Below are positions 8,068-63,622 of a DNA stretch of 64,000 nucleotides, piece after piece. The DNA is taken from the NCBI GenBank assembly GCA_963816185.1, contig CAWFJJ010000024.1:352001-416000 (forward strand). The letters are read 5' to 3'. Numbering within the stretch: position 1 is the first letter of the stretch; each line of letters starts with the position of its first letter. This stretch comes from Thermoanaerobaculia bacterium. GTDB lineage: Bacteria; Acidobacteriota; Thermoanaerobaculia; UBA5066. The position numbers and the translations under genes were made by a program. Under the pieces are notes generated by a model, which worked only from the letters and a program-made list of their open reading frames with translations, ran no database searches and was not told the origin of the DNA.

Positions 8068-10726
8068 ATGAGCCTGTTGCCCGGCACCCCTCTCGGCCCC
8101 TACGAGATCATCTCGCCCCTCGGGACGGGCGGGATGGGGGAGGTCTACCGGGCGAGGGACACGCGCCTCGCGAGAGATGTCGCGATCAAGATACTGCCGG
8201 AGGATTTCTTAGAGGGTGAAGAGGGGAAGGCAGCGATTTGAGCGGGAGGCGCGCCTCGCTGGCGGCGCTGAGCCACCCCAACGTCGCCGCCATCTTCATT
8301 CCTTCGAAGAAATCCCCGGGTCTTCTCCCCCTTCCCGCCACGTCCTCGTGATGGAGCTCCTCGAAGGGACGACGCTGCGCGACAAGCTGGACTCGGGGCC
8401 GATCGCCCAGCGGCAGGTCGTCGACTACGCCCTCCAGATCGCCAAAGGCCTTTCGGCGGCCCATGAGAAAGGAATCGTCCACCGGGACCTCAAGCCCGAG
8501 AACCTCTTTGTCTCGAAGGACGGTCACGTGAAGATCCTCGACTTCGGTCTGGCGAGAAGGATCGAGCAGGACAGGACCGGAGACGAGACCCGCACGCCGA
8601 CGGAATCGAAGCACACAGAACCGGGCGTCGTCATGGGGACGGTGGGCTACATGTCGCCCGAGCAGGTGCGTGGGCAGCGCGTGGACCACCGCTCGGACAT
8701 CTTCTCGTTCGGGGCGATCCTTTACGAGCTGCTCTCGGGGCAGAGGGCGTTCAAGAGAGACACGGCCGCCGACACCATGTCGGCGATCCTGAAGGAAGAG
8801 CCGCCGGAGCTTTCGGGATCGGGCCGGAACATCTCGCCCGCCCTCGATCGCGTCGTCACGCACTGCCTGGAGAAGGACCGGGGCAACCGATTTCAGTCCG
8901 CGAAGGACATCGCGTTCGCTCTGTCGGAGGCGTCGGGTCAGGCAACGAGCGGGGCACAGGGGAGGGCACCGTCCGCCGTCCCGACGAGAGCCCTCGCCGC
9001 CGTGGCAGCCGTTGCGGTCCTCGCCGTCGCAGGAATTCTCTTTCTTCGTCGTTCTCAAAAGGTCGCGACGGACGCGGGCGGCGTGAAGCGCGTGGCCGTC
9101 CTGCCGTTCGAGAACCTCGGCACACCCGAGGACGACTATTTCGCGGATGGCATCGCGGACGAAATTCGCGGGAAGCTGACATCCTTGTCCGGAGTTCAGG
9201 TGATCGCTCGAGGCAGCTCCACGCCCTACAAGAAAACGAGCAAGACGCAGAGGCAGATCGCCCAGGAGCTGGACGTCAGATACCTCTTGACCGCAACAGT
9301 GCGGTGGGAAAAGGGGACCGGCGCGAGCCGCGTCCACGTCAGCCCGGAGCTCGTCGAAGTCTCCGCTTCCGGAGCGCCGACGTCTAAGTGGCAGCAGCCG
9401 TTCGACGCGGCGCTGACGGACGTCTTCCAGGTGCAGTCCGACATCGCCTCGCGCGTGGCGCAGGCTCTCGGTGTAGCACTCGGCGCGGGCGACGAGAAAC
9501 GGCTCCTGGAGAAGCCCACACGGAACCTCGCCGCCTACGACGCCTTCCTCAAGGGCGAGGACGCCTCGAAAGGCATGGGAGTCATCGATCCGCCCAGCAT
9601 TCGGAAGGCGCTCGAGTTCTACGAGCAGGCCGTCGCGTTGGATCCCGACTTCGGGCAGGCGTGGGCACGAGTATCACAGGCCAGCTCGGGCCTGTATTTC
9701 TTCAGCACTCCCACACCCGTGCTGGCTGAGCGCGCGAAGCAGGCCGCGGAGAGGGCAGTCGTGCTCGATTCCGGCCGGCCCGAGGGGTATCTGGCGCGCG
9801 GCCTGTACGAGCGGCTGGTCGTCGGGGACTCGAACCGAGCCTTGGAGCAGTTCGCAAATGGACGACGGATTGCGCAGGGCGACAGCCATCTCCTCGGGGG
9901 AATCGCGCTGGCCGAGGAGGCTCTCGGACGATGGGAAGCGGCGGTGGAGCACTTCAGGCAGGCGGAGCGCCTCGATCCCCGCTCGCCCGGCCCCTCGGGC
10001 GCTTTCAGCGACCTGCTCGTCCGTCTGCGACGGTACCGCGAGGCGCGCCAAGCCTGTGATCGGGGGCTAGCCTTCGCGCCCGCCAACCTGACCCTGATTG
10101 AGACAAAGGCCATGACGTTCCTCGGGGAGGGAGACCTGGCCGGTGCCAGGGCCACGCTGAAGGCCGCGCCGGCAGGCGTCGAGCCCACCGCACTCGTGGC
10201 CTACGTGGCGACCTACAACGATCTGGTTTGGGTGCTCGACGAGCAGCAGCGCGGGCTGCTCTTGCGGCTGACGCCACACGCATTCGACGACGACCGGGGC
10301 GTTTGGGGACTCTGCCTCACCCAGGCCTGCGCCTTGCTGGGCGATGCGACGAACGCTCGTATCTACGCCGAAGAGGCGAGAAGGACTTTCGAGGAGCAGC
10401 TCGGCGCGGCGGCGGGGGATTCACAGCGTCACGTCGTTCTCGGCCTCGCGCTGGCTTACCTCGGCCGGAAAGAGGAAGCGATTCGGGAAGGCGAGCGCAG
10501 TGTCGCTCTGCTGCCCTTGACCAAGGATGCAGCCGCAGCCCCCTACAACCAGCACCAGCTCGCCCGCATCTACATGCTCGTCGGCGAACAGGAAAAGGCC
10601 CTCGACGTGCTGGAGCCGCTTCTGACGATCCCCTACTACCTGTCGCCCGGCTGGCTCAGGATCGACCCCAACTTCGACCCGCTGCGAAAAAACCCGAGGT
10701 TCCAGAAGCTCGTGGCGGGGAAGTAG
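8068..10726 (+). CDS. Hanks-type Ser/Thr kinase with TM segment, TolB-N-like domain and TPRs; three apparent frameshifts at ~8225-8300
   Basis: ATG 8068 gives [50 protein letters not shown] and [12 protein letters not shown] follow in other frames; then [32 protein letters not shown]. Confidence 0.85.
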
Positions 10727-10790
10727 GCGAGGCGCCGCTCCAGCCAGCAGGGGGGCTTGTCATATCCTCCGTTCCCATCGGAGGTAACAC

Positions 10791-62334: not shown

Positions 62335-62359
62335 CGCCCACGGCCCGCGAGGGCCCGCG

Positions 62360-63622
62360 ATGATCGCGAGCGTCAAGGGGACGCGCGACCTCCTCCCGCC
62401 CGAGACGCGCGTGTGGAACCGCGTCGAGGCGGCTGCGCGCGAGGTCTTCGCGCTCTACGGCTTCGACGAGATCCGGACGCCGACGCTGGAGTCCACGGAG
62501 CTCTTCGTGCGGAGCGTGGGGGAGTCGACGGACATCGTCCACAAAGAGATGTACACGTTCACCGACCGCGGCGGCCGTTCCGTGACGCTGCGCCCCGAGA
62601 ACACGGCGGGAGTCGCGCGCGCCTACGTCGAGCACACGCTTGCGCAGGCAGGGCGGCCCTGGAAGCTGTACTACATCGGGCCGCAGTTCCGGTACGAGCG
62701 CCCTCAGAAGGGCCGCTATCGCGAGTTCCGGCAGATCGGAGCCGAGATTCTCGGCCCCTCGGACGCCGCGACGGACGCCGAGCTGCTCGTCATGCTCTTC
62801 GACTTCCTCGGGCGGCTCGGGTTCATGGGACTTTCTGTTTCGCTCAATTCGGTGGGGACGGAAGTCGAGAGACCAGGGTTCATCCAGGCGCTGCGCGCCT
62901 GGTTTTCTTCGAAGGAGAATTTGCTGGACGAGGACGACCGGCGACGCCTCGCGGAGAATCCCCTGCGCATCCTCGACTCGAAAAATCAGCGCCTTGCTGA
63001 ATGGCTCGCCGATCCCTCGCTGCCGCGCATGGTCGATTACCTTTCGAAGGAATCTTCCGAACATCACACGATGCTTCTCGGCTTTCTCGACGCAGCTCGC
63101 ATCCCCTATCGGATGGATCCTCTTCTGGTCCGTGGCCTCGACTACTACACGCGCACCGTTTTCGAGGTCACGGCAGCCGGCCTCGGAGCGCAGGACGCGA
63201 TCCTCGGCGGGGGCCGCTACGACAAGCTCGTCTCCGACCTCGGGGGACCGAGGACCGCCGGGATCGGCTTCGCCATCGGGACGGATCGTCTCGTCGGCAT
63301 CCTGCCCGAGGCGTTCCGCTCGGCGGCGATCGAGGCCGTTCGGCCTGTCGTGCTGATCCCGCTCGAGCGCGCCGACGTGGCGGAGGCTCTCTCCCTCGCG
63401 AAGGACCTTCGGAAGGAGGGGATTCCCGTCGACCTCGTCACGGCCGCGAAAGGACCGGGGCACGGCCTGAAGGTGGCCGAGAAAACGGGGGCCGTCCTCG
63501 CCGTTCTTCTCGGGCAGAAGGAGCGCGAAGGGGGAGTCGTGAACGTCAAGGATCTCGCGCGGCGGACGCAGGAGGCGCTCCCGCGGCTCGGCCTCGCGGC
63601 CGCTCTGCGCGCGCGTCTGTAA
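62360..63622 (+). CDS. hisS: Histidine--tRNA ligase
   Basis: KGTRD, KEMYTF, LRPENTA, FRYERPQKGRYREFRQ, LVRGLDYY, GGGRYD, IGFAIG. Confidence 0.96.
   Translation: MIASVKGTRDLLPPETRVWNRVEAAAREVFALYGFDEIRTPTLESTELFVRSVGESTDIVHKEMYTFTDRGGRSVTLRPENTAGVARAYVEHTLAQAGRPWKLYYIGPQFRYERPQKGRYREFRQIGAEILGPSDAATDAELLVMLFDFLGRLGFMGLSVSLNSVGTEVERPGFIQALRAWFSSKENLLDEDDRRRLAENPLRILDSKNQRLAEWLADPSLPRMVDYLSKESSEHHTMLLGFLDAARIPYRMDPLLVRGLDYYTRTVFEVTAAGLGAQDAILGGGRYDKLVSDLGGPRTAGIGFAIGTDRLVGILPEAFRSAAIEAVRPVVLIPLERADVAEALSLAKDLRKEGIPVDLVTAAKGPGHGLKVAEKTGAVLAVLLGQKEREGGVVNVKDLARRTQEALPRLGLAAALRARL

Follow-up and report, generated by a model that had tools for sequence, protein, structure and literature searches.

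The window analysed here is a stretch of 64,000 nucleotides from a Thermoanaerobaculia bacterium (GenBank assembly GCA_963816185.1, contig CAWFJJ010000024.1, positions 352,001 to 416,000 of the forward strand). Set within and between its genes, among them a Ser/Thr kinase gene, a minus-strand GTP cyclohydrolase I gene, alr, a RecN/SMC-like gene and hisS, is a short AT-rich word, TTCTWAGAA. This word was found to be the core of a larger, oriented half-site that recurs hundreds of times in the genome, mainly in inward-facing pairs. Half-sites of the two facing orientations are called F and R, and the copies in the window are as follows.

8193 to 8230, plus strand: F half-site in the Ser/Thr kinase gene; core 8206-8216 TTCTTAGAGGG, read EDFLEGEEG.
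8290 to 8330, minus strand: R half-site, partner of the one at 8206; core 8301-8311, which is CCTTCGAAGAA on the plus strand, read SFEEIPG.
29033 to 29229 (29035/29217), no strand assigned: weak inward-facing pair, ATTTCTTTGAAAG ... CATTCGAAGAATC, in a periplasmic-binding-protein open reading frame (ORF); two mismatches on each side, membership uncertain.
40804 to 40932, no strand assigned: complete intergenic module; F core 40811-40821, R core 40884-40894, spacing 73-75.
48090 to 48135, plus strand: alr F half-site 1; core 48103-48113 TTCCTAGAAGG, read NFLEGEEG.
48240 to 48275, plus strand: alr F half-site 2; core 48250-48260, read IFLEGVF.
48318 to 48450, no strand assigned: alr inward-facing pair; F core 48328-48338 read IFLEG, R core 48428-48438 read PSKK.
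59660 to 59720, plus strand: F half-site, TGCTTAGAAGG at 59685-59695, in a long purine tract.
60382 to 60531 (60382/60517), no strand assigned: weak inward-facing pair, ATTTCTTCTGAAAGG ... CTCGAAGAAATCTCC, in the RecN/SMC-like ORF.
62905 to 63055, no strand assigned: weak pair in hisS, TTCTTCGAAGG at 62905 with a poor R-like match at 63041; possibly chance.

A sequence-only reading of the window had listed five exact copies of TTCTWAGAA, at 40811, 40886, 48250, 48328 and 48430. All five are there, as compared to 0.07 expected, and none of 100 dinucleotide shuffles reached five. The variants it listed at 8206, 8301, 48103, 59685 and 62905 and the look-alikes at 29033/29217, 60382/60517 and 63041 are likewise present, while the one at 25590 has two mismatches and may be chance. 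Twenty sites in the window lie within two mismatches of the 11-mer TTCTTAGAAGG, where 5.25 are expected. The over-representation it had claimed extends to the whole assembly that holds the window (G000; 5.09 Mb in 30 contigs, ~67% GC, 94.9% complete, with the window in contig C24). TTCTWAGAA occurs there in 337 exact copies and the 11-mer in 201, against 0.79 expected for the 11-mer under a third-order Markov model, and after one homopolymer artefact the most over-represented 11-mers are words of this family. When one mismatch is allowed, 541 sites are found (272 on the plus and 269 on the minus strand), compared to 92 for a reversed control word, which amounts to one site per 9.4 kb. Site density along the contigs is very uneven. 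No clear regional pattern and no strand bias of sites were seen along the eight large contigs, where GC skew is weak, and a link to replication was rejected on these grounds. The A11/T11 word that ranks first in the k-mer table does so because of contig C10 (15.6 kb), which between 1147 and 2239 holds a poly-T run of 1028 nt followed directly by a poly-A run of 65 nt, almost certainly an assembly artefact.

The word marks a clade. In the relatives first sampled, 18 of 18 congeners carry 51-267 copies, compared to 1-11 for the reversed control word, and 12 genomes from seven other genera of the order have 0-1; these tallies include the unpublished genomes G019 and G024, and many of the congener assemblies are fragmented. 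Because all 18 congeners carry it in such numbers, the feature does not stem from an error in this one assembly. Across the whole acidobacterial family, a scan gave 37-267 copies in 28 of 28 other genomes of the same genus (g1), 1-31 in all eight genomes of a sister genus (g11) and 0-1 in the 26 genomes of eight further genera, so that the word is confined to g1 and g11, a lineage restriction that the earlier idea had predicted. Among congeners, copy number varies 7-fold. That the word is the product of chance, or of sequencing or assembly, is a reading already refuted and left with a negligible likelihood. Real assembly errors do exist, as the poly-T run and an extra base in alr near 48358 attest, but the shuffles and the genome-wide excess speak against such an origin, and the word stands at orthologous places in every one of the 28 other genomes of the genus.

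All sites are oriented, the strand of each being read from the central W base of TTCTWAGAA. Position frequencies over 540 oriented sites give, in order, a purine-rich arm (from about -20 to -1), (A/T)T, TTCTTAGAAGG and K-GAA-RR-GG; written another way, the arm is followed by ATTTCTTAGAAGG and KGAAGAGGGG. Information has faded by about +19, and the half-site is ~25-40 bp long. It is thus a purine tract around a 9-bp AT-rich mini-palindrome and is asymmetric overall, so the free-standing symmetric box of the sequence-only reading has to be replaced by an oriented word found mainly in inward-facing pairs. Common core variants in G000 are TTCTTCGAAGG and TTCTTAGAAAG, with 93 copies each. The first is enriched only 5-fold, for which reason the 62905/63041 pair is possibly chance, and part of its count reflects paralogy, because kinase paralogues share that variant. 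The word carries stops in two of the three forward frames and in one reverse frame.

Within 250 bp, G000 sites with at most one mismatch form 124 inward-facing pairs, compared to 7 outward-facing and 29 same-direction pairs, and the inward-facing spacing has a sharp mode at 72-76 bp. Among the remaining single sites, 291 were examined, and a partner core with up to two mismatches was found 15-250 nt away on the inner side in 108 cases and on the outer side in 8. Together, the 124 strict and the 108 degenerate inward-facing pairs make at least 232 modules in G000, which take in two thirds or more of the half-sites. A module consists of two facing half-sites around a GC-rich centre and measures ~100-170 bp in all. 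The centres are unrelated among loci, with only three similarity groups of 40 nt or more among the 124, and some are native coding sequence: the centre of the 8206/8301 pair is the native kinase sequence RFEREAR...HPNVAAI, and that of the alr 48328/48428 pair encodes conserved Alr residues. Three modules with a long spacing of 206-235 bp (C28 at 439.7 kb, C25 at 104.9 kb and C30 at 540.0 kb) share an interior of ~110 nt, 86-89% identical, which holds a second long GC-rich palindrome and may be another repeat family nested in the module. An invertible segment was considered and rejected, as no centre aligned better when reversed among 15 pairs in G000 and the related genome G011 (scores of 0.41-0.70 forward and -0.03 to 0.15 reversed, where alignable). 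No strand-changing joints were seen in the short, low-depth Logan contigs of four runs over 40001-49000, where cover at 40601-40900 is only 0.3-1.0.

With respect to genes, 43 of the 124 strict pairs fall inside a called gene and 81 are intergenic, of which 56 lie between tandem, 15 between convergent and 10 between divergent genes. The intergenic pairs lie a median of 44-50 nt past the upstream stop, with ~140 nt left to the next start; for the module at 40804-40932 the distance from the stop of the GTP cyclohydrolase I gene is 37 nt. Coding potential falls away within ~100-150 nt of the sites, and ~70-80% of sites have no local coding signal around them. About a fifth of the pair/strand rows (27 of 124) are spanned by an open frame that has coding signal to either side, in most cases the frame that gives F-L-E-G ... 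P-S-K-K, and sites inside genes occur in both orientations and several reading frames. Counted by pair side, 55 of 248 are read through and 88 are non-coding; in 21 the ORF opens within the purine arm or F, in 32 within the centre and in 52 beyond R. One module is translated as the C-terminal tail of the ORF upstream of it, and this module is complete in 8 of 18 species, truncated in two and absent from eight. A role as promoter, ribosome-binding site or gene start was rejected, because the ORFs leaving the pairs open without rule. In the window, the TAG at 59689-59691, within the word at 59685, is the stop of the ORF at 58150-59691, just upstream of the RecN/SMC-like gene.

Within genes, the word is spelled with codons that the genome seldom uses. 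In the crude gene calls for G000, TTA makes up 0.3% of leucine codons; nonetheless, 28 of 57 in-frame FLEG peptides are spelled TTC TTA GAA GGN, compared to ~0.01 expected, and 22 of 38 PSKK peptides are spelled CCTTCTAAGAAA (CCT TCT AAG AAA), compared to 0.04 expected. The claim that the motif forces rare codons into proteins is borne out by this codon-aware check, with both TTA-spelled FLEG and PSKK far above expectation.

One intragenic case is alr (47752-48964 by Pfam), which has three F sites (48103, 48250 and 48328) and one R site (48428). The four occupy the same places in 17 congeneric orthologues; each is exact in 6-11 of the 18 sequences, and most of the rest differ by a single base. 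In nine species, site 3 has instead the related TTCGAAGAA(ATC) form in the same frame. Relative to outgroup Alr, site 1 is a 6-residue insertion, and sites 2 and 3 stand in place with length unchanged, where outgroup LRVAG and VFRDG correspond to IFLEG here. In two orthologues (L015 of G007 and L024 of G003) the F unit at site 1 is tandemly duplicated, in units of ~33-36 nt that are followed by extra GC-rich sequence, and the Alr loop is longer in frame. The alr gene of the window changes frame in the GCGCGCGCGGG run at 48350-48365. Because all 17 congeneric orthologues are one base shorter at this run and an independent short-read contig (run X1) omits the base at 48358, the change of frame most probably reflects an indel error of the assembly and not a pseudogene.

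Similar replacement is seen in the kinases and at the end of a further gene. Eighteen of the 31 displayed kinase paralogue rows carry TTCGAAGAAAT at the same place with the same two arms, and distant paralogues have ordinary GC-rich sequence of equal length at the arm positions. The similar peptides that the sequence-only reading had pointed out in the kinase and Alr are indeed there, but the kinase copies are the TTCTTCGAAGG variant common to the paralogues. The N-lobe of the window kinase has 50 blastn matches in G000 (28-52 per congener), including those in C24 at 602-634 kb, several of them in tandem arrays, and many of these paralogues share EFFEGEE and SFEEIPG segments carrying the variant word. 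In the window kinase itself, the frame of the N-lobe (8225-8300) hits a stop at ~8240 and resumes in other frames, with small extra bases at three places as compared to the closest paralogues; these breaks are either assembly errors or signs of a decaying paralogue. The further gene is a ~450-codon ORF, a putative tyrosyl-tRNA synthetase gene (tyrS). Its end reads GTC TTT CTT AGA/CGA ATG GGG AAG AAA TTC in the genus and GTG CTG CGC CTG GGG CGC CGG TTC in two outgroup genomes, and past its stop 11 of 16 species have an R half-site of the consensus form. From alr, the kinases and this tyrS-like end, it follows that arms can arise singly, in place and around native sequence, by means of rare codons and conservative replacements, which is unlike the behaviour of a transposon. 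Since the word is spelled into coding sequence with very rare codons in some essential genes, something reads the DNA itself.

The fate of individual sites was followed by comparing G000 with 1.2 Mb of G011, whose genes are ~85% identical. Of 145 comparable sites, 81 have at most one mismatch in G011, 14 have two, 16 have three or more and 34 fall in gaps. At 102 aligned orthologous sites, core identity is 0.912 and that of the ±40-nt flanks 0.745, so that the core diverges three times more slowly than its surroundings; this difference (91.2% against 74.5%) points to a core that is either under constraint or being homogenised. Conservation in the orthologous genes of relatives, to which the sequence-only reading had looked, is seen both in alr, where the four sites are kept in 18 sequences, and at 81 of the 145 sites compared with G011. 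Its proposal that selection acts on the nucleic acid rather than on the protein likewise agrees with the rare-codon spelling, with the use of both orientations and several frames, and with cores conserved above their flanks. In three modules read from a g11 genome, arms, core and spacing match those of g1. A module in locus L189 of that genus (genome G049) and one at 544.1 kb of C24 in G000 apparently lie within a gene at what seems to be the same place, both read ...DFLE(G/S)EEG...SPSKK... and then MLRVAQ, and this apparent co-location suggests that some modules predate the split of g1 and g11.

Our leading explanation, which we hold tentatively, is that of a bipartite module resembling the bacterial interspersed mosaic elements (BIMEs), in which the half-sites would be duplex-DNA recognition sites for a putative lineage-specific protein. 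The two facing half-sites would be bound together as a pair, and modules would be placed at transcription-unit ends and tolerated or recruited inside genes. Selection would maintain the word, and whole modules would turn over by ordinary indels filtered by selection. In enterobacteria, BIMEs, which are paired repetitive extragenic palindromes (REPs), bind gyrase or integration host factor (IHF) at transcription-unit ends. A wider and rather doubtful possibility is a genomic word system of the clade, in which an oriented ~25-bp word in ~75-bp inward pairs would be actively maintained, even inside essential genes and at the expense of very rare codons and altered residues, and read by putative clade-specific DNA-binding, topology or uptake machinery. 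If this were true, the repeat would be of a kind neither transposon-borne nor RNA-structural and would be the first such self-DNA signal outside Proteobacteria and Cyanobacteria.

Several points weigh against recognition of the half-site by a protein on duplex DNA. Many bridging proteins would be expected to impose helical phasing on the spacings, yet phasing at 10-10.5 bp is absent once the 72-76 peak is set aside, the best period among spacings above 78 being matched in 10% of jittered nulls. The gene positions come from a crude ORF caller of our own (3618 genes, 84% coverage) that erred in the alr region at least. The 34 sites in G011 gaps are typically whole modules of 75-170 nt gained or lost, which also fits mobility or recombinational spread. 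In addition, 48 of 50 modules fold into a long hairpin in which the F core pairs with the R core (mean z of -2.8 as compared to -0.3 for control windows), and the window module at 40804-40932 folds at -56.3 kcal/mol (z -2.3). The tests of covariation and of G·U against A·C mispairs, described next, are noisy, as they use ungapped registers and leave 747 of 2970 positions in an 'other' class.

This folding of F onto R is the reason that a function as an RNA or single-stranded-DNA hairpin is kept as a reading. As an RNA element, which we consider unlikely, the pair would form a hairpin at the 3' end of transcripts or within them, serving as a terminator, 3'-end protector or processing site, and an RNA-binding protein or ribonuclease would recognise the conserved AU-rich core at the foot of the stem. 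The position of modules ~45 nt past stop codons and their relative scarcity between divergent genes would suit such an element, and a module that is identical on both strands suits convergent genes; REPs themselves plausibly act as RNA, according to PMC3733652. The pairing tests were negative, and this weakens the RNA reading. Arms match their own partner no better than those of other loci (11.74 as compared to 11.60 of 30 outer positions, and 6.26 as compared to 6.31 of 14 inner positions), and in 56 tandem and 43 intragenic pairs, read on the sense strand, G·U mispairs (278) are not in excess of A·C mispairs (275). A templated, quasi-palindrome origin of the partner arm was rejected for the same lack of complementarity to its own partner. 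The coding arm at the tyrS-like end is rewritten to the family consensus, although pairing alone would let the downstream arm adapt to whatever coding sequence it faces, and F sites with no R partner are conserved in alr. Only one T-run terminator was called in 39000-50000, none at a module, and shuffles give 5.7. Searches against Rfam gave no match at gathering score in the window and one chance-level match (E = 1) in nine module loci. That an arm keeps to the family's consensus rather than to its partner, together with the strand symmetry of the signal, points to a half-site read as duplex DNA.

The gain and loss of whole modules between species, at the 34 G011 gap sites and at the window module itself, a 129-nt indel missing from G011, G017, G009 and G008, calls for a selfish repeat to be weighed as well. 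A non-autonomous element of the MITE (miniature inverted-repeat transposable element), REPIN or Rickettsia palindromic element (RPE) kind would be spread or homogenised by transposition or short-patch gene conversion, would have no host function and would be tolerated in frame. The modules do have terminal inverted repeats bounding a short, mostly non-coding element; the tandem duplications in some alr orthologues and the 7-fold difference in copy number among congeners would also fit, and the 27 in-frame pair/strand rows recall RPEs, in-frame copies of which lie inside genes according to PMC10969869. We nevertheless think a selfish origin improbable. The centres are unrelated and in part native coding sequence, orthologous cores are much better conserved than their flanks, something not expected of a decaying insertion, and the in-place cases involve no change of length. 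None of the seven indel junctions read between G000 and G011 has direct repeats of the kind left by target duplication, and arm lengths and boundaries vary. The Y1 transposase domain of REP-associated tyrosine transposases (RAYTs; PF01797) is absent from G000 at its 94.9% completeness and was found in 4 of 29 genomes of the genus, where the word stands on one side of the locus at most. No transposase lies between the 14 wide pairs (500-3500 bp) of G000, which enclose ordinary genes or no called gene, the other clade genomes not having been searched for a parent element. An IS5-type MITE with a TTAG/CTAA target was rejected, as the inverted repeat crosses the presumed target and its two sides are reverse complements, not direct repeats.

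Spread through natural transformation is a further candidate, in which biased uptake together with recombination would drive the word into tolerant places, as for DNA uptake sequences (DUS) and uptake signal sequences (USS). The word is lineage-specific with the same core in the sister genus, its strands are equal (272 and 269), its intragenic copies are written in place at tolerant positions, its inverted pairs lie downstream of genes, and ComEC is present. We still rate this as very unlikely. Known uptake sequences occur about once per kb, compared to about once per 9 kb here, and the density along contigs is very uneven. Such a system does not account for the strong preference for inward pairs at 72-76 bp or for the long purine arms. 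ComEC, found in 30 of 31 relatives, is no guide, because sister genera devoid of the word have it equally (12 of 12 genomes). Most copies here are non-coding, whereas PMC2346458 places 65% of H. influenzae USS in ORFs; it also describes inverted-repeat uptake sequences with a disputed role as terminators.

Short interspersed repeats, REP/BIME, DUS/USS and HIP1 for example, belong to the most poorly understood traits of bacterial genomes, and nearly all work on them has been done in a small number of cultured phyla. The present family combines BIME-like pairing and a position after genes with USS-like, in-place writing into essential genes, and shows no sign of the enzymes thought to spread REPs. 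Its confinement to two genera, at 1-267 copies per genome, makes the reader of the word findable by phylogenetic profiling, and the clade offers a clean natural system in which selection, biased conversion and uptake can be set against one another as keepers of a word. The word is also a sharp marker for binning and for recognising DNA of the clade, and it accounts for odd low-GC, rare-codon patches and variable protein tails in clade genes.

Compared with known systems, the modules share with MITEs and RPEs their terminal inverted repeats, a length of 100-170 bp, presence or absence between species and some in-frame translation. They differ in that no shared interior, target-site duplication, fixed ends or cognate insertion sequence was found here, and some copies are in-place replacements rather than insertions; alr site 1 adds 6 residues, but nothing is inserted at alr sites 2 and 3, in the kinases or at the tRNA-synthetase-like end. 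With the DUS and USS of Neisseria and Pasteurellaceae, the word has in common a core of 9-12 nt with an extended flank, strand symmetry, clade specificity, tolerant intragenic positions with unusual codons and inverted pairs after genes, but it is ~10 times sparser and mostly non-coding, its pairs stand ~75 bp apart and not adjacent, and its purine arms are long. HIP1 of cyanobacteria is similarly a short, lineage-specific palindromic word kept at the DNA level in coding and non-coding sequence; it is a symmetric 8-mer, however, is far denser and has no organisation into oriented pairs. The sites parS, matS and NBS are symmetric boxes of 13-16 bp, with tens of copies, a regional distribution and a cognate protein. 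The sequence-only reading had offered them as a possible type, which does not suit oriented half-sites of ~25-40 bp, at least two thirds of them in inward-facing pairs and mostly in non-coding DNA just past genes; the half-site here is asymmetric, present in hundreds of copies and without clear regional pattern on the eight large contigs.

No description of this repeat family was found in the literature, judging from titles and abstract openings, and we file it as a repeat of the interspersed palindromic kind that is not a member of any named family. REPs, according to PMC3733652, lie mostly downstream of coding regions and sometimes inside genes and are tagged GTAG or CGTC. The unit described here is not a GC-rich stem-loop and, over the 540 oriented sites, has no GTAG or CGTC tag; no flanking RAYT was found in G000 or at the four Y1 loci of the 29 genus genomes; and units stand 72-76 bp apart around a locus-unique centre, with copies written into genes in place. 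Like REPs and BIMEs, the family has hundreds of copies, inverted pairs that fold into larger hairpins and lineage-specific membership, and it too lies mainly downstream of genes (71 of 81 intergenic pairs are between tandem or convergent genes) with some intragenic copies. Of the systems considered, it is to REP/BIME-type repeats that its anatomy is closest.

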